Shown in pieces: positions 28,894 through 40,270 of a stretch of 64,000 bases of DNA. The DNA comes from Mayamaea pseudoterrestris. Taxonomy: Eukaryota. A program made the position numbers and the translations under genes. Within the stretch, counting starts at the first letter, position 1. Every line of letters begins with the position of its first letter. The notes under the pieces were generated by a model. The model made no database searches. It was given only the letters and a program-made list of their open reading frames with translations, and was not told the DNA's origin. The stretch is taken from positions 930,001 to 994,000 of the forward strand of contig BROI01000005.1 in the NCBI GenBank assembly GCA_027923505.1. Direction: 5' to 3'.

Positions 28894-29078
28894 AATTAGT
28901 GGTGATGCAATATGTTCGTAATATATGTTCAGTATGAACTATCAGCTGCAACCCATCACATCAGACTCGATTGAAAGATTTTTCCAGGCCGCGTCGCTCC
29001 GGTTCTCTTTTAGCTATGACAGCACGTCTAAGTCACGCGTCTGTCGTCGAAGCGATATTCATTAGATTGGTACCTGTG

Positions 29079-29405
29079 TGTTGCAAACCATGTTAGCTTA
29101 GTGGAATCGAGGATGACACCGAAGATGACATCTATTGAAGATGACGATGATTGGACCGAGGTACAATCAAAGGAGAGGAAGGCTAATAGAAGGGCTTCCT
29201 ACAAGTGTCAAGAAGGGCAGATGCTCCGAGTGAAGGCCCTGGGATAGGACCAGAGGAGGCATCTGATTGTGGCTCTTCACTTGTATCAACGATCAAGGAT
29301 CGTTGACACCAGTCAAGTAGCAAGTAGTGCTCACAAAGCAGTAGAAGAGTCGGTTTAAAGTAATCAGTACGGTTACCACCAGATTCGTTTTGTAGTTATT
29401 CGACA
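29079..29405 (+). repeat. 5' LTR
   Basis: tgttgcaaacc...ttattcgaca; differs from the 3' LTR at 5 of 327 positions. Confidence 0.97.
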
Positions 29406-29456
29406 CGTTAATTAACGTTCACTTCGATCAACAAGAGCTAGCAAGCAACAGACATC

Positions 29457-32400
29457 ATGACGGCCGACACGAGAGAGATTCGAACCAACAAGATGAAGGG
29501 CGTCCCGTTCAAGGGAGAGACGCGAGAGCAGTTTGAGCAGTTCAAGATTATGATCCTCAGAGAAGCCAAGCAAAGCGGCTGCATCCCTTTCCTCATAAGT
29601 GATATGACAAAGGACGTCAACGGAAACCCAACTCCCTTCCTCACGGACATGGAATACGCCCGTCGTCAGATCTGGACGACAGCGGCCACGACAGCAACGT
29701 CGACGCTTCCACGCCCGCCACCCGCTTCGCCAAGTACGACGTTGCCAACAGAGGTTGGAGAGACGGCAGCTACGCCAAGAACCCTGTTTACTTCCTTCCG
29801 CGAGCCAACGTCGCACGAGCTTCTGATGTACCAGAAGGATGCGGAAGCAGGAAACGCCTTGATGGCGAGCGCCGAGAACCCGGGCCTTCGTCAACGCCTC
29901 AACGATAAGAAGACGGCGCATGAGATGTGGTTGATGCTGAACGTCGAGTTTGGCTCTACTCACCTCGTTACCAACCTTGGTAAGCTCAAGAAGAAGCTCA
30001 TCCAAACGACTCCGAGAGACTACGACAAGCCCGAAGAGTTCTTCAGTGTGATCGACTTGAGGAACGGCAACCTTGGCCTCATCGACAACGGCAAGTACAA
30101 GTTCGATGACATCGAGTTGACAATCTTGATGTACGAGAGCATCCCCGATAAAGGAGACCCCAAGTGGGAGGCTTTCAAAGTGGTCCATTCGCCCAACTTG
30201 ACCACGCTGACAGGACTGCAGTTCCGCGAGCTCCTGAAGGACAGCTGGGATCACTTCGGCAATCCTTGCGGCAGCAAGAAGACTGGCAGGGACAAGGATC
30301 ATGCGCTCGCCTTCACGAGCGGCAAGAAAGGTGGATCTGGAAAAGGATACAAGGGCAAGGGTGAGTTCAAAGGCAAGGGAGGCGGCGACACCGCTACCAA
30401 GGCCAACAAACCCAAGAAATTCCGAGAAGACATCACCTGCTTCAACTGCGATAAGGTTGGACACTTTGCAAGCGACTGCAAAGAGCCAAAGAAGGAGAAA
30501 CAAGTCCAGTTTGCAGCATCTGTTAGCTCAACAAGCTCAAAGAAACACACGAAGAGCAGCAAAAAGGACTACGCGTTTGCAATAATGAGCGTTGAAGGGG
30601 TGACGCCAGCAGGCACGCTGGCTCCCACGGTGAAGCAATCTAGCTATGACTCCTTCTTCGATCCAGCCTCCCTCTCGAGTTCACTACCTACACCTACCAT
30701 TCACGCCTTCTACAACCAAGTTTCTGGTAAACAGGCATCATGGGGTTCAGTTTGTGACTCCCAAGCCGATGACGACGACTTCGTTCGTTCGAACATAAGC
30801 CTTGGTGATGGTTCGTTAGCTAGATACGAGATGGAGGAAGCCGAAAGCGAATGGGAAGCAATTGAAGAAGCAGCTGACAACCTTGCGGATACCAATGGTT
30901 ATCAGGACAATGAAGCCAGTGAGGGGTATGTCGCGGCGAGCAACGCCAGCGCCTTTGTGGTAGTTGACTCCACTGTCCCGATCTGGATTGGTAATCCACT
31001 GTTAGCTGGAATTGGTGCGAGCGGCCCTCCCGATGGAAGCGACCATGGGGATGACAGCACCTCTGGCGACGGATGGTCTCCAAGCATCAGCAGTGAATCA
31101 AGCGATGATACAAACGTCACGCTTTCAGAGCTCTATACATGGGAAGAGGCTATGCTCATGTCAGAGAATAAGCACTCGAAGCCGCGCTCAGCCAAAGGCA
31201 TGAAGTTTACCGACAAGCGCAGCGAGATTGAGAAGCTCAACACTCTTCATAAAGAAGTGCAGAAGCAACTTGCAGTGACTGAAAGGCTTGGTAATAGACC
31301 TCCTGACGACTTGTTCATGCAGGTCTTGAAGACTCGATGGTTGAATCGCCCTGACGACGCGCCACTCGATCTGCTCACCAAGTACAAAGTCTTCTGCTAC
31401 TTGAGAGACGAGGAAAGCTCAATGGCAAGCAGCGTCAACAGCTACTATGCTCTCTCAGGAGAGATGATCCAGCGGAACATCACTGAGTACCATCATACAG
31501 CAATGAGGACGACGATGCAGGAGGAGCGAGCTCGACTCGCGGAGGGACAGATCTGTTACCCCGACCCCGGCCAATTCTGGGACCACGTCGTGTGCGATCC
31601 TAGATACAACAATCTACAAGCGTGTACCACTGAAGCAGAGCGACAGTGTGCTAGAGAGTATTTCCGGAATCAAGAGCGAGCAATCCAGCTTGCTGCCGAA
31701 GAAAACTGGAGCGGTCCATACAGCTTCGACGGAATCCGGTCCAACTTCTTTATACCAGTCAGGTTGATGGATGGAAGTGAACTGGAGTATCAGCAGCGAG
31801 CCGAGGCGTATTTTCGCACACCCGCGAACCAAAGGGTTGTTAGCAACTTCCCTATGCGTTTTAATGGTGGCGAAGAAGAGAGCAGCAACGAGCCGAGCGC
31901 ACTCGTCCGTGGAAGAGCTGCCGAAGAAGAGAGCAGCAGCATACCAACGGAGGTCACCGTTGCGCTTGGACACCTTGACTTTGCAGAACAATGGGAATGG
32001 TTCATGAACATTCGCCGACGTGAACAGTATGTGCACGAGCAATTGATGTGTGATATTCGCTGCAGCGTTCAGTGGATCCCGGAGTTCGATTGCGTTGTTG
32101 TTCCAATCGACTACGTCGCAGCAGTTATGGCTGCGACAGACGGCCACACCAACCACACGAACAAGTATCTTCTCGACTCAGGAGCTACTCAACACGTCTC
32201 TTCCTCCGACATGGGAATGAGTTATCTCCAAGCTTGTCCGCTGATTTTGACGGCGGCGAATGGAGAGCCGATGTACACGCCAGTGATGGGAGACTTGCCA
32301 TTACAGACGAAGACGGGGATTCGACTCACGTTGACGGGCGTTCCCGTCGTGCCTACAGCACCGATGAATATAATCAGCATGTCAAAGCTACTTGATGCTG

Positions 32401-33254
32401 GTTGCGAGGTTGCAGAATTTGGGCCGGAACGAGTCCTCCTTCGATGCAATCCAGAGGACCCGACGGACGTACTTGAATTCCTTCGCGAGGAGGGATCGAC
32501 CCTTTACTTCCTTGAAGCCTTTCGTCGACCAGAAAGCATTAATGCGATTGACGATGAATCAAGAGAGGAGGATCGAGACGACGAAGATTTAAATGAGGAG
32601 GACGACGAGGGCGACGATCCTGCAGACGAGGCAATCAATAAGCCTCCGCAGCGCGTCGAGATTAACCAAGCTCATCAAATCCTTGGGCATCCTGGAAAGA
32701 ATCAATTGCAGCAGTACGCAACGCAGTTCAATTGGAAGCTTTACGGCAACTTGGATCAATGCGCTCCTTGCGAGAAAGGCAAGATGACGGCAAAGAAGAC
32801 GGCCAAGTCTACCGCTGTGACAGCTCTGCGACCTGGAGAGCGCATCTTTGTTGACTCGAGTGGTCCTTACGATGAGACACAAGGAAAGAATAAGTATTGG
32901 TTAATGATGGTAGACGATCATACCAGCAGAAAATGGTGCCATTTCACTCGATACAAGTCACAAATGGCCGACGTTGTTATGGAGGAGCTCACGTCGTTGC
33001 GAGCGCGCAACTTCCCTTGCCTCTATCTTCGCCTTGATAACGCTCCAGAATGGCTACCGCTTGAAAAGTATTGCAAGCAGTGGGGCATTCAGATGGAATA
33101 TACCGCCCCGTATACGCCTCAATGGAACGGAAAAGTGGAACGAGCGTTCCCTTATTTGCGCGACAGAGCGTACGCAATGATGAACGCAGCCGCCTTCGCG
33201 ACGAGTCTACAGTTACAAATGACAAAGGAATTGAAGTTAAACAAGTTCCTTTAA
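29457..33254 (+). CDS. Copia ORF part 1: Gag (CCHC knuckle), unknown ~560-aa insert, aspartic protease, integrase N-terminal and core
   Basis: CFNCDKVGHFASDC; LLDSGATQH; HQILGH...CAPC; IFVDSSGP, LRLDNAPE, PQWNGKVER. Confidence 0.9.
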   Translation: MTADTREIRTNKMKGVPFKGETREQFEQFKIMILREAKQSGCIPFLISDMTKDVNGNPTPFLTDMEYARRQIWTTAATTATSTLPRPPPASPSTTLPTEVGETAATPRTLFTSFREPTSHELLMYQKDAEAGNALMASAENPGLRQRLNDKKTAHEMWLMLNVEFGSTHLVTNLGKLKKKLIQTTPRDYDKPEEFFSVIDLRNGNLGLIDNGKYKFDDIELTILMYESIPDKGDPKWEAFKVVHSPNLTTLTGLQFRELLKDSWDHFGNPCGSKKTGRDKDHALAFTSGKKGGSGKGYKGKGEFKGKGGGDTATKANKPKKFREDITCFNCDKVGHFASDCKEPKKEKQVQFAASVSSTSSKKHTKSSKKDYAFAIMSVEGVTPAGTLAPTVKQSSYDSFFDPASLSSSLPTPTIHAFYNQVSGKQASWGSVCDSQADDDDFVRSNISLGDGSLARYEMEEAESEWEAIEEAADNLADTNGYQDNEASEGYVAASNASAFVVVDSTVPIWIGNPLLAGIGASGPPDGSDHGDDSTSGDGWSPSISSESSDDTNVTLSELYTWEEAMLMSENKHSKPRSAKGMKFTDKRSEIEKLNTLHKEVQKQLAVTERLGNRPPDDLFMQVLKTRWLNRPDDAPLDLLTKYKVFCYLRDEESSMASSVNSYYALSGEMIQRNITEYHHTAMRTTMQEERARLAEGQICYPDPGQFWDHVVCDPRYNNLQACTTEAERQCAREYFRNQERAIQLAAEENWSGPYSFDGIRSNFFIPVRLMDGSELEYQQRAEAYFRTPANQRVVSNFPMRFNGGEEESSNEPSALVRGRAAEEESSSIPTEVTVALGHLDFAEQWEWFMNIRRREQYVHEQLMCDIRCSVQWIPEFDCVVVPIDYVAAVMAATDGHTNHTNKYLLDSGATQHVSSSDMGMSYLQACPLILTAANGEPMYTPVMGDLPLQTKTGIRLTLTGVPVVPTAPMNIISMSKLLDAGCEVAEFGPERVLLRCNPEDPTDVLEFLREEGSTLYFLEAFRRPESINAIDDESREEDRDDEDLNEEDDEGDDPADEAINKPPQRVEINQAHQILGHPGKNQLQQYATQFNWKLYGNLDQCAPCEKGKMTAKKTAKSTAVTALRPGERIFVDSSGPYDETQGKNKYWLMMVDDHTSRKWCHFTRYKSQMADVVMEELTSLRARNFPCLYLRLDNAPEWLPLEKYCKQWGIQMEYTAPYTPQWNGKVERAFPYLRDRAYAMMNAAAFATSLQLQMTKELKLNKFL

Positions 33255-35782
33255 AGCTTTGGGCGCACAGCGTGCATACTGCAGTGGTCCTCGACAATTT
33301 ACTCGCTCGAGGCAAGTACAGCAACGCGTACGCCGCGTTCAAGGAGCACCCGTTGGTCCGTTCAACGGATCTCGTCCCTTGGGGAAACCAAGGATGGATG
33401 AAGAAACCAGGAAAGCAAAAGCATTTTGTTTCTAAAGCGGAGCTTGTTTACTTCGTCGGGTACGCCGACTTGCACTCGTCCGACACCTTCCTCGTTTGGA
33501 AACCGTCCACGGGTCAAGTCATTGTCACTAGAAACGTCAAGTTTGCACACCCAGACCATCAGCAAAGGATTGTTAATGAAGGAACGACGAGCGACAGCGA
33601 TTCTGACCGCTCGAGCGATGGCCACAAGGAGGATTCAAGTGATGGAGACTCGCTCCCTCAAGATGCGCCGCCCGAATCGAGCGACGATGAATCGGTCATC
33701 CAATCAGGGAGGGATACAGCTCCTAGAGTCAATCATTTGCCTCTTCCATTGCCGCCTGTTAACAGTCGTCTGCAAAGAGAGCTACGCAGATTGGATTCCG
33801 ATTACAATCCATCGTCTGTTGAAGAAGAAAGAAGAACGCGAGCGTCGGTGCGACAGTCGGAACCAGTCGAGCGTGACACCGTTCCATCACCAATCCCCAC
33901 GGTACCTCAAGTGGCCAGCGTGGCTGCCATTGCAACAAGTAAAGCAAAACGCCCTCCTTTGCCTACTAATGCTAAAGAAGCTTATCTAAAGGAGAACAAG
34001 CTTGTATGGGGACCCGCTACGTTCGAGGAATATGACAAGTTCATGAAGCGCGAGGCCTGGGTTGTCGAGGATCGACCAAAGGATCGCAAGCTGCTTCGAA
34101 TGAAGAACGTTTTCACGTATAAGGAGAATGCCATTACGAGGATCTACGAGGCAAGATGCCGCAACGTTATACTTGGCTACAACATGCGAGAAGGAATCGA
34201 CTATAACGAGTCGTTCTCGCCAACGCCAGTGGATCAAACAATTCGCACCCACCTCACCGTCTCCCTGTTCATTCGACAGGAGATAGAGGATCGAGACGGC
34301 CCCGAGGCAGCAGAAGCTAACTGGAGATGCTGCGATGTGTTCGATATAGACGCTGCGTTCCTCAATACGCCAGTCGCGACAGACTTGTGGATCGAGGCGC
34401 CACCGTTGTTTGAAGAATATTGCAAGTCGAGAGGAATCCCGTTCGATCCGACCAAGCAATGCTTGCGACTCGCCAACACGCAATACGGGCAAGTCGATGC
34501 CTCAGCACTGTGGCTAAAGCACTTCGCAAAGATCCTACACGCTGCAGGAATGACGCGGATGAAGAGCGATCCGTGTATGTTCTTCAAGAGGTCGCCAGAC
34601 GGCACGCTTCTTCTACTCGTTACAATCTACGTTGACGATGCTGCAGTTAGTGGAGTCCCTCGAGAGGTTGAGGAACTCAAACGCAAAGTTAAAGAGTACG
34701 TTGACATAAAGGATCTTGGACCAATCAGGAAGCATCTTGGCATCCATTACAAGCTCCTGCGTGACAAGGTCGGCGTGTACTACGAGTGCACGATGACGAC
34801 GTACAAGAACGATATAATCTCTGAGTTTAAACGATACACAAACCAGACGACTCTAAAGGACGTACAAACGCCAGCGCCAGGAGGATCTTCGCTACTCAAG
34901 AACGAAGGCGAGCCGATCGATTCAACTGGATACAGATCGTTCAAAGGGAAGGTACTCTTTGGCGACAGAAAGGTCTGGCCCGATATTAGCAACGCCGTAA
35001 GAGACGGATGCTCCCACGTTAACAATCCTAGCGAGGAAGCGTGGAAGCAGCTCACGAGAATCATGAGTTATTTGGAGCATCACGAGCAGCCGTTGAAACT
35101 TCGCACGCCGAACTCTTTGCAGTCGTTTGCTATATCAGATACAGACTGGGCGACGGACAAGAATGACCGCCGCAGCACGACGAGTAACCTCACGTTGCTT
35201 GGAGGAAACGCGCTCGTCAACTGGGTATCTCGAAAGCAGAAGACCGTGGCTCTATCAAGTACTGAAGCAGAGACTTACGGAATGACGGACGCCGTCAAGG
35301 ATCTAGTCTTTCAAGAGAATCTTGTGAGCGAGATACTGGGATTCCAAGCGCCTGGACCAATGATAGCATACTGCGACAACACTGGAGCGATCTTTCTTGC
35401 AACGAACAATCAAGTTAGCCAGCGCACGAAGCACATTGATATAAGACACAGGTTCATCAGCGAGCTAGTCGAGAGCGGCAAACTCGAGTTGCGCTACATC
35501 AAGACTGATGAGAATCCAGCAGATATCCTTTCAAAGAATTGCAAGGAGGAGATTCATCTAAAACATGCCGATGCCATTTACGATGGATTCGCCGCATCAC
35601 CGATTCAGGAGGATGTTGCAAACCACGTTAGCTTAGTGGAATCGAGGATGACACCGAAGATGACATCTATTGAAGATGATGACGATTGGACCGAGGTACA
35701 ATCAAAGGAGAGGAAGACTAATAGAAGGGCTTCCTACAAGTGTCAAGAAGGGCAGATGCTCCGAGTGAAGGCCCTGGGATAG
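33254..35782 (+). CDS. Copia ORF part 2 (-1 frame): integrase C-terminus, SH3-like, reverse transcriptase, RNase H
   Basis: KLWAHSVHTAVVLDN; YFVGY; ESFSPT, DIDAAFLN, YGQVDAS, IYVDD; SDTDWATD, SSTEAE, CDNTGAI, KHIDIRHRFI, ENPADILSK. Confidence 0.9.
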   Translation, partial: KLWAHSVHTAVVLDNLLARGKYSNAYAAFKEHPLVRSTDLVPWGNQGWMKKPGKQKHFVSKAELVYFVGYADLHSSDTFLVWKPSTGQVIVTRNVKFAHPDHQQRIVNEGTTSDSDSDRSSDGHKEDSSDGDSLPQDAPPESSDDESVIQSGRDTAPRVNHLPLPLPPVNSRLQRELRRLDSDYNPSSVEEERRTRASVRQSEPVERDTVPSPIPTVPQVASVAAIATSKAKRPPLPTNAKEAYLKENKLVWGPATFEEYDKFMKREAWVVEDRPKDRKLLRMKNVFTYKENAITRIYEARCRNVILGYNMREGIDYNESFSPTPVDQTIRTHLTVSLFIRQEIEDRDGPEAAEANWRCCDVFDIDAAFLNTPVATDLWIEAPPLFEEYCKSRGIPFDPTKQCLRLANTQYGQVDASALWLKHFAKILHAAGMTRMKSDPCMFFKRSPDGTLLLLVTIYVDDAAVSGVPREVEELKRKVKEYVDIKDLGPIRKHLGIHYKLLRDKVGVYYECTMTTYKNDIISEFKRYTNQTTLKDVQTPAPGGSSLLKNEGEPIDSTGYRSFKGKVLFGDRKVWPDISNAVRDGCSHVNNPSEEAWKQLTRIMSYLEHHEQPLKLRTPNSLQSFAISDTDWATDKNDRRSTTSNLTLLGGNALVNWVSRKQKTVALSSTEAETYGMTDAVKDLVFQENLVSEILGFQAPGPMIAYCDNTGAIFLATNNQVSQRTKHIDIRHRFISELVESGKLELRYIKTDENPADILSKNCKEEIHLKHADAIYDGFAASPIQEDVANHVSLVESRMTPKMTSIEDDDDWTEVQSKERKTNRRASYKCQEGQMLRVKALG

Positions 35783-35940
35783 GACCAGAGGAGGCATCTG
35801 ATTGTGGCTCTTCACTTGTATCAACGATCAAGGATCGTTGACACCAGTCAAGTAGCAAGTAGTGCTCACAAAGCAGTAGAAGAGTTGGTTTAAAGTAATC
35901 AGTACGGTTACCACCAGATTCGTTTTGTAGTTATTCGACA
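35614..35940 (+). repeat. 3' LTR
   Basis: Direct repeat of 29079-29405. Confidence 0.97.
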
Positions 35941-36001
35941 CCTGTGGTCATCAACAAGACTTGTATAATCTGAAAATCATCTCCGCAACACAAGTTACTA
36001 A

Positions 36002-37613: not shown

Positions 37614-40270
37614 ATGAATCAACCAGCCGTCTATCAACCACACCCGTCCCATCAGCAGCAACAAAATACACCTCCTCCTCCTCATGCCATCGCTCGACGT
37701 TCGGGGCCTGCTCCCCCGCCTCGCGTTCCAAAACAGAAGAAGAAGCAGATTGACGACGACATTATCGTGACACAGTCGCCAGATCAAGAGACTGAGGATG
37801 GGAGAATTGTGAACCGACAGGTACGTGTCAGAGTACGATCACAACGGTGACGATGGATCTTGTTAATGTTGAACTTGACTTTGCTGTGCTATGCTCACAT
37901 GCTCACCCAAATTTTATGGCTGCTGTACAACTCCACATTGACTATCACCACCAGGCGGTGAAAGCGATTATCGACACATGGATTTACAAGCAAGTGCGAC
38001 AGCGACAGGCAGAATTTACGCAATACAAGCAGGTACGTTTGTTGTTGCTTTGGAGCCGGCAAGCTCCAACTACCGGTGACCAAGGCACCGTCTACGTCCT
38101 GCAACATTCATCTCATTTCTTATATACTTATGGATCTATAAATCTTATATCAAAACAGGCGTCACTATTCCTTGGAACCTGGAATGTAAATGCCAAGGGC
38201 AAGAGCGACGAGCGTCTTGATGAGTGGCTATGCGCCGACTGGCAAACAGCAACGCCCGATATTGTCGCAGTCGGATTTCAAGAAATTGTCGACTTGAACG
38301 CTGTCAATGTTGCTGTTGACAACAAGACACAGCAAAGGTCGCAGTTCTGGGTGGAGCAGCTAACGCAGACGCTCAATCGACGTGCTGGTAGTTCACAACC
38401 CTATGTTCTTGTTGCCAGCAAGAGTATGGTTGGATTGCTCATTGTTATCTTTGTCAAAGCGGTTCATCAGCATCGGGTTCAGTATGTTAGTGCAGCGAGC
38501 GTTGGAGTGGGTGTCATGGGCATGATGGGTAACAAGGGCGGTGTGAGCATTCGCTTACACTTTTACGACACGACGCTCTGCTTTGTTTGTTCGCATTTGG
38601 CGGCTCATCGAGAGAATGTCACGGGGAGAAACCAAGACTTTAGTAACGTTTACAGCAAGATGGTATTTGATGTCGGTGAAAGGGCTATTCAGGAGTTTAT
38701 TCGGTCCGGATCGCTTTCACACTGGTCTATTGGAAAAACTGAGGTTGGAATTGCTGACCATGACATGATTTTCTTCATTGGAGATTTGAACTATCGAATA
38801 GACGAGTCCATGATGACAGAAAAGGTGTTGCAGCTATCGGAGAAGAATATTCTCGACGAGTTGCGGACGCTGGATCAGCTGAATGTGGAGCGAGCGGCCG
38901 GGAGGGCCTTTTCAGACTTTTTTGAAGGCATTTTAAACTTTCCACCAACCTACAAATACCAACCAGGCACGGAAACGTATGACCAGAGGCCAGATAAAAA
39001 AGTTCGAGCACCTGCATGGTGCGACCGAATACTTTGGAGTGCCCAACAGCCTGAGCATGTCCAGCAGATCACATATGGTCGCAGCGAAAAGCCAAACATA
39101 TCGGACCACAAGGCAGTTTATTCGACTATGCGTGTGACGATCAAGGATGTCATTCAATCTAAGCGTGAAGCTATTTACGAACAGCTCATGAAACTAGTGG
39201 ATACGGTCGAGAACCGGACGTTGCCGGTGATCAAACTGGATCGCGTTAAGTTGGACTTTGGACTCGTTCACTATGAGCAAAGTGCATCTCTTTCAATTAA
39301 CATTACCAATTTTGGCGGCGTTGTGGCGCATTGGCGTCTGATCCCAAAGCTTGATGAGGTGCGTGTTGCCAATTGCGTCCTCTGTCGGCTTGTAAGCTGG
39401 TTGAGTTTCTAACGCACTCCGTTTTCATTACAGAATGTCGTGAGCAAGCCGTGGATTACTGTAGCCCCGGCTCATGGACTGATAATTCCAGGTAGTAGCC
39501 CATCCTGTATCGTCTGTACTGTGACCATAACTAAGGATACGGCGCACATGTTAAACTCAGGGCGGGAAGTTCTCAGTGATGTTCTTGTACTGCGCCTGGA
39601 AAATGGACGCGACTATTACATCACCGTCGAGGCAACTTATGCGCGCTCATGTTTCGGCATGTCTGCAGAAGAGCTCGTCGTATACTCAGATCCTGTCCGA
39701 AACGTGCCGCTCGACTCGATTAAGCGGTCAAAGGGTATTGACCCTCGTGCGCCCGCCACTTTGTGTATTCCCAAGGAACTGTGGCGAATTATCGACGCAA
39801 TATACGAAAATGGACTTTATACGCCACATTTGTTCACAGAAGTCGGAATTCTAGAAGAAATCGCACAGATTCGAGAATGTCTAGACACTGGTACTCGATT
39901 TGGTGAATTTTGCATCCACTCCTACGCAGAAACGCTGACGACCTTTTTGGAGAGTCTTTCGGCACCGATTGTCCCAGGCAATCTATTCCCTTCTCAAGAA
40001 ATAGACTCGCTGAGCATACAGTCATGTGCACGTCGGTTACTGGAAGAGCTACCTCCCGTTCATTACAACATCTTTGTATATGTCATATCGTTTTTTCGAG
40101 AAGTTCTCATCCATCGAGATAACAATTTGCTTTCAGCAGCTAAAATTGCCCGAGTTTGCTGCAGCGCTATGGCAGCCGGTGCTGATATCGTCGGCTTTGG
40201 AACCTCTGCGGCAAGAAGGCATGGCATGCAGCTAATAATTTTACATTTGCTGGAGACCAGCTCGATATGA
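37614..40270 (+). CDS. OCRL: OCRL/INPP5B-type inositol polyphosphate 5-phosphatase with ASH and RhoGAP-like domains, 4 exons: 37614-37820, 37955-38032, 38159-39358, 39434-40270
   Basis: GTWNVN, VGFQEIV, MGNKGGV, FIGDLNYRI, PPTYKY, PAWCDRIL, SDHKAV; LRLENGRDYYI, IPKELWRIID. Confidence 0.9.

Follow-up and report, generated by a model that had tools for sequence, protein, structure and literature searches.

An AT-rich patch and a single-base frame difference in the integrase of a Ty1/copia retrotransposon family

The window, a 64-kb stretch of DNA analysed as a whole, contains a Ty1/copia LTR retrotransposon at 29079-35941, a partly decayed copy whose pol reading frame is interrupted inside the integrase. 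An AT-rich patch at the interruption is extra relative to the proteins of the element's own clade, is retained in sister contigs from public sequencing runs, and lies a short way downstream of a site at which some of these contigs carry one more G than the window. We consider it probable that the family as a whole acquired an in-frame insertion in the integrase linker and that a single base was subsequently lost in the lineage of this copy. Under this history, the integrase of a copia family would have been extended by some 39 nt of AT-rich sequence (13 codons), placed between the end of the Pfam rve core match and the C-terminal SH3-like domain, and in members with GG at 33185/33186 the polyprotein would pass through the patch in a single frame. 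In the lineage of the window copy one G would have been lost, so that ORF1 would meet the stop at 33252, and the rest of the integrase, the reverse transcriptase (RT) and RNase H would be left untranslated in the -1 frame. Recoding would not be involved, and the hairpin and slippery heptamer found in the patch would be incidental to its insertion. An earlier note on this DNA had named an ordinary mutational origin as the simplest explanation of the break, and we retain this as the best reading.

Anatomy of the element and its host setting

The element is bounded by direct LTRs that are 98.5% identical (5 differing positions) and flanked by a target-site duplication, CTGTG, of 5 bp, or of 6 bp if the LTR end is set one base earlier (Table 1). 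Direct LTRs with a short target-site duplication characterize Ty1/copia elements, as does an integrase upstream of an RVT_2-type RT, and here rve/rve_3 was found in ORF1, followed by SH3_retrovirus and RVT_2 in the -1 frame. The element thus shares with Ty1/copia its LTRs, its 5-bp duplication and the order gag zinc knuckle, protease, integrase and RVT_2. Domain matches in ORF1 were zf-CCHC (332-348), Pol_BBD (909-988) and rve (1130-1226), the last with a score of 25.2 bits, below the Pfam cut-off of 32.6; a profile of the element's clade scored 141 bits on ORF1. ORF2 matched SH3_retrovirus (39-98) and RVT_2 (267-530). The annotation of the source genome gives ORF2 as a separate 886-aa protein (P0003) starting at 33122, and this gene model was without companions in its 90% identity cluster. 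We found no second copy of the element within the 64-kb window.

Table 1. Coordinates of the element's features in the window
Feature	Position	Strand	Remarks
5' LTR	29079..29406	+	328 nt; CTGTG precedes at 29074-29078
ORF1	29457..33254	+	ATG at 29457, open 29442-33254 with codons starting at multiples of 3, TAA at 33252-33254; gag (zinc knuckle), Pol beta-barrel, protease region, integrase core
Extra-G site	33185..33186	+	window ACGCAG; sister contigs with one more G
AT-rich patch without counterpart in relatives	33216..33253	+	38 nt; boundaries uncertain by several bases
Imperfect inverted repeat (hairpin)	33224..33252	+	9-bp stem, 11-nt loop holding GTTAAAC
-1 frame (ORF2)	33254..35782	+	open from 33065; integrase C-terminal SH3-like domain, RVT_2, C-terminal region
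Predicted long irregular stem-loop	33257..33344	+	begins 14 nt after the heptamer, just past the ORF1 stop
3' LTR	35614..35941	+	328 nt; CTGTG after at 35942-35946

The pol frame enters the 3' LTR (35614-35782, 169 nt), so that its final ~55 residues are LTR-encoded, and the coding piece from the 3' LTR recurs in the 5' LTR at 29080-29244. The genes flanking the element encode ribosomal protein L1, Beclin/Apg6, an HSF-type factor, a DUF3727 protein and an OCRL-like phosphatase, all in long eukaryotic ORFs that are nearly without introns, which suggests that the host is a gene-dense, alga-like organism or protist. The gene for the OCRL-like inositol 5-phosphatase/RhoGAP protein (37796-40267) is interrupted, within its ASH domain, by a single in-frame TAA (39410-39412). 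The 42-nt stretch 39392-39433 that holds this TAA starts with GTAAGC, contains CTAAC and ends in ACAG, and is probably a very short intron with a length that is a multiple of three. Very short introns such as this putative one seem to be used by the host.

The element may resemble the CoDi copia lineages of diatoms, both being copia elements in a gene-dense, intron-poor genome of algal type. However, the break in the window lies inside the integrase and not between gag and pol, where the elements selected by Maumus et al. 2009 mostly have one or no stop or frameshift (PMC2806351).

Integrase spacing in the clade and the composition of the patch

We measured integrase spacing as the number of residues from the catalytic Glu to the conserved Trp in 64 integrase motifs from proteins returned by homology searches. 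Spacing was 25 in 50 of the 64 motifs and 29 in 12; one further motif had 26, the distance was undefined in another, and none exceeded 29. The motifs with a spacing of 29 represent the element's own clade, including its nearest relatives P0030 and P0001, which are 42-43% identical to the window element. Once the 38 nt of the patch are removed, the window element also has a spacing of 29, as do 12/12 clade relatives. The earlier note had stated that deletion of 38 nt restores the usual copia spacing. This holds for the clade value of 29, but the commonest value among copia motifs is 25 (50/64).

All 12 clade proteins are continuous across the break site. When the two frames were compared with a profile of the 12 relatives, the match to ORF1 (141 bits) ended at node 112 and that to the -1 frame (55 bits) began at node 110; therefore about 38 nt are without a counterpart. 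By these alignments every one of the 12 clade relatives lacks the patch, which supports its reading as an insertion, and a 38/39-nt AT-rich patch was present in none of the 64 integrase motifs compared. Since 12/12 relatives hold exactly 29 residues and none of the 64 motifs is longer, a 13-residue insertion at this position may not be harmless. With the clade of P0001, P0030 and P0009, which are metagenome or protist polyproteins, the window element shares the spacing of 29 once the patch is discounted. It differs from them in carrying the 38/39-nt patch, in being frameshifted and in having a pol frame that ends inside the 3' LTR.

The patch begins approximately 30 residues past the end of the Pfam rve match (1226) and approximately 40 ahead of the SH3-like domain. 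Its GC content is 29%, against 51.5 +/- 7.3% for the element, and only 0.3% of the element's 38-nt windows are as low. The 38-mer occurs once in the 64-kb window, with no further match at up to 3 mismatches, and comparison with the rest of the window by blastn returned only short matches at chance level. TTA stands at 33213-33215 and again at 33251-33253, 38 nt apart. The hairpin has a predicted folding energy of -7.7 kcal/mol (z -2.4), and 4-6 of 200 shuffled sequences folded equally well. The heptamer GTTAAAC (33236-33242) is in phase with ORF1 and lies 10 nt upstream of the ORF1 stop; it was observed 8 times in the window against 6.3 expected, and is not enriched.

The features to which the earlier note had drawn attention, namely TTA on both sides, a foldable hairpin, an in-phase G_TTA_AAC and an ORF1 stop at the end of the patch, are thus all present. 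Its description of the patch as an insert bounded by TTA is correct in that both copies of TTA exist, but the boundaries of the patch are uncertain by several bases, and with them any 'duplication' of TTA. The origin from a PIF/Harbinger element that it had raised found no support beyond the TTA itself: the inverted repeat at 33224-33252 is internal and not terminal, and as the repeat falls short of the 5' end of the patch, the terminal inverted repeats of a PIF/Harbinger element or MITE were not found.

Sister contigs, the extra G and the order of events

Five public runs from two studies contained 62-66% of the sampled words of 32500-34000, and contigs from four of these runs (X1, X2, X4 and X5) were aligned to 29450-35600 at 85% likeness. 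The contigs are unphased and may have dropped rare variants, their library types are not on record, and one run may be the source of the window itself. Searches of other kinds returned little: an integrase-region protein query for sisters gave 2 distant matches among 794 candidates, none of the 9 candidates from a 150-aa query spanning the junction scored, an exact 29-base pattern allowing for G or no G had 0 matches in metagenome contigs, and a protein-guided metagenome scan matched 241 stretches with 0 confirmed.

No contig of the four runs skipped the patch: none of the 12 joints listed for them was at 33215/33254, where a skip would show. X4 record 20, a contig of 3163 nt that is 98.9% alike (33 differences, net 3 inserted letters) and spans 32697-35600, keeps the patch and is unchanged at 33185, without the extra G. 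The suggestion of the earlier note that the insert could be a one-off private mutation was therefore not borne out, as contigs of four runs never skip the patch and one of this length and likeness spans it. Other copies do carry the insert, and the patch is not private to the window.

Behind 33185, an extra G accounted for a depth of 3.3 out of 13.6 in X1, 4.45 out of 4.45 in X2, 0 out of 7.33 in X4 and 185.3 out of 459 in X5. G-bearing contigs were present in three of the four runs (X1, X2 and X5) and contigs without the G in X1, X4 and X5, with the no-G form accounting for the larger share of depth in X1 and X5. In X2 record 14 (1596 nt, 99.2% alike, 12 differences, 1 gap) the extra G is the sole indel; this contig ends at 33229, 14 nt into the patch and at low coverage there, and among the pieces listed the G-bearing contigs reach only part of the patch. 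Because the -1 frame is without a stop from 33065, one extra G leads ORF1 straight into the frame of ORF2. The resulting reading is AMMN, one Gly codon, the -1 frame residues SRLRDESTVTNDKGIEVKQVPL, and then KLW. In the G-bearing part of the family the patch is then simply 13 extra codons read in frame, and these copies would otherwise be intact. The frame break can equally be put, and is best placed, at the single-base difference at 33185/33186, approximately 30 nt upstream of the patch.

We compared the ten codons at 33186-33215, which follow AMMN, in both frames, using 9052 10-mers as the null for the profile. On the clade profile the ORF1 frame scored 4.9 bits (top 0.4%) and the +G frame 3.9 bits (top 0.9%), whereas the BLOSUM62 sum over the 12 relatives was 42 for the ORF1 frame and 49 for the +G frame; the two tests point in opposite directions, and both are weak. 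In pairwise comparisons the +G frame was better for 8 of the 12 relatives, including the two nearest, and the ORF1 frame for 4, most strongly for P0009 (5/10 identities, including a conserved Leu-Gln). Codon-usage log-odds for the ten codons were -1.0 in the ORF1 frame and +1.3 in the +G frame, compared with 2.9 +/- 2.5 for in-frame windows of the element, a slight lean towards the +G frame that does not separate the two. As the ORF1 frame fits the profile as well as the +G frame does, homology leaves the ancestral frame undecided, and we prefer the history in which the in-frame insertion came first because it needs fewer unlikely steps.

The differences between the contigs and the window bear on the coding status of the family. 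Forty of 288 differences were listed, not a random sample, of which 23 were synonymous and 17 non-synonymous, and this suggests some coding constraint on the family as a whole. Among the listed differences in ORF2 at which all four runs disagreed with the window (n=8, small numbers), 6 were non-synonymous, which fits neutral drift of an untranslated ORF2. Six differences fall within the 107 nt of 34042-34148, where the four runs agree against the window and 4 of the changes are non-synonymous; this may be a patch of changes private to the window copy, or a recombination tract.

The reverse order of events is unlikely, although it is the alternative that we take most seriously. Here the 38-nt insertion would have broken an ancestral ORF1-frame reading, AAAFATSLQL followed by KLW; the frameshifted form would have spread, mobilised in trans or simply inherited; and the +G would be a later insertion that saved the frame, giving a single frame back at the cost of 10 changed and 13 added residues. 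Consistent with this, the alignments of ORF1 and the -1 frame to the clade profile meet without leaving out a node, and the residues of the ORF1 frame reach 4.9 bits on that profile and match P0009 at 5/10 positions. Removal of exactly 38 nt gives the clade spacing of 29, and copies without the G are found on two sequence backgrounds and have the majority of depth in X1 and X5. The two backgrounds are seen at 32828, 32873 and 32897, where X4 record 20 departs from the window but the G-bearing X2 contig is identical to it; a history in which the G came first therefore needs two losses or recombination between copies. However, the reversed order requires that a dead element persisted and that a +1 insertion, a rare event, arose within about 190 nt and went on to spread, and it would make the profile match of the +G frame (top 0.9%) and its 8/12 pairwise wins a coincidence. 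An error in the window assembly, with the real copy intact, would also explain the missing G, since this is a one-base change in a GG run and contigs of 3/4 runs carry the G. We regard such an error as very improbable, as contigs without the G were found in X1, X4 and X5, including the one of 3163 nt, although the assembly may itself derive from one of these runs.

In the gag region, exactly 100 nt (30337-30436) are skipped in contigs of X1, X2 and X4 but not of X5, and in X2 the unskipped form is also present. The skipped segment ends in CT..AC, which on the minus strand corresponds to GT..AG with the acceptor CCTTTTCCAG, and an antisense ORF of 371 aa occupies 29412-30527. This looks like a spliced antisense transcript, and suggests that runs X1, X2 and X4 are RNA.

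Recoding, splicing and the meaning of the break

Compared with an in-frame insertion followed by the loss of a base, we see only a slim chance that the break is a site of programmed -1 ribosomal frameshifting at G_UUA_AAC (33236-33242), by which copies without the G would make the full integrase and RT at a low rate. The two frames are offset by -1, the heptamer is in the phase of ORF1, and the no-G form is common to several contigs. The X_XX part of the heptamer is non-canonical but known from equine arteritis virus, for which one review gives G_UU(A) as the shift site (PMC5009743), and the G_UUA_AAC of the viral ORF1a/1b signal is likewise in phase. A -1 signal is described, in the relevant passage of a review, as a slippery site plus a structure 5-9 nt downstream (PMC7026636). 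No stimulatory structure was found at this distance past the heptamer of the window: the small hairpin encloses the heptamer, which is a further difference from the arterivirus signal, and would be melted while the site is decoded, and the large predicted fold begins only 14 nt downstream. The segments 33243-33330 (z +1.16) and 33247-33300 (z +0.61) folded no better than shuffled sequences. The fold starting at 33257 is one of the most stable predicted in the element. Its surrounding segment, 33247-33370 (124 nt), has a predicted energy of -44 kcal/mol (z -2.81) that 0/200 shuffles matched, and it was equalled by 3/620 windows of the element, or 1.6% after adjustment for GC.

It is accordingly conceivable, but very unlikely, that the no-G form is a maintained variant in which the integrase C-terminus, RT and RNase H would be made by -1 frameshifting with the aid of the predicted 88-nt stem-loop at 33257-33344. 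If this were true, the patch would have created a recoding site inside the integrase, and the no-G and in-frame forms would jointly set the ratio of structural to enzymatic products. However, the frequency of the heptamer is that expected by chance, a two-frame layout was found in none of the 12 clade proteins, all of them continuous here, and the G-bearing sister contigs need no shift. In addition, the changes in ORF2 that are private to the window are mostly non-synonymous (6/8), and a shift within the integrase would presumably leave the Gag:Pol ratio unset.

Translational bypassing from the TTA at 33213 to that at 33251, or excision of the patch as a very small intron, deserves still less credence. 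The matched TTA codons, 38 nt apart with a hairpin in between, recall the short inserts of phage T4 gene 60 and yeast mitochondria, which also lie between matched codons and contain a hairpin. In gene 60, according to the same review passage, bypassing involves matched codons, a stop that immediately follows the take-off codon, a stem-loop at take-off and a signal in the nascent peptide (PMC7026636). At the take-off TTA of the window (33213-33215), neither the stop nor the take-off stem-loop was found: CAA follows directly, and the stem lies 9 nt further on, beginning at 33224, so that the take-off codon is outside it. Moreover, phage T4 gene 60 and yeast mitochondria are the sole cases of bypassing given in that passage, whereas the window element is nuclear by its flanking genes, its translation would be nuclear-cytosolic, and in-frame sister copies exist. 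Of the defining features tested for the frameshifting or hopping that the earlier note had thought possible, most failed, the exceptions being the phase of the heptamer and the matched TTA codons.

For splicing, a point in favour is that the host seems to have very short introns (the putative GTAAG...CTAAC...CAG one of 42 nt at 39392-39433). The earlier note had found no GT-AG intron that restores the frame. As worded this is too strong, since several GT-AG pairs of 23-59 nt around the break open the frame, for example 33205-33245 (41 nt), but none of the GT-AG pairs near the break is 38 nt long and none retains both KLW and the spacing of 29. These frame-opening pairs either alter the conserved spacing or remove KLW. 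No 38-nt intron of the GT-AG, GC-AG or AT-AC type fits the patch; the only 38-nt GC-AG pair, 33168-33205, lies upstream of it and would delete conserved residues. The 3163-nt contig, of a library type not on record, retains the patch. In the Ogre LTR retrotransposons of legumes the pol frames are joined only once an intron has been spliced out, and there, as in the window, the pol frame is interrupted by a removable segment, but the window patch is without splice signals.

With an in-frame insertion followed by a one-base loss as the preferred history, the window element represents a case of routine retrotransposon decay, and it would be of wider importance only should translation across the break be demonstrated for the frameshifted form. 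It carries a caution: what looks like a tidy insert with a hairpin and a slippery site may be incidental coding sequence, with a single base 30 nt upstream deciding its reading frame. The G and no-G forms exist side by side on more than one sequence background, which may be a sign that copies have recombined. For the family itself, the finding means that a patch of 13 codons is either tolerated, or was followed by a rescue, in an integrase segment that is otherwise of invariant length in the clade.
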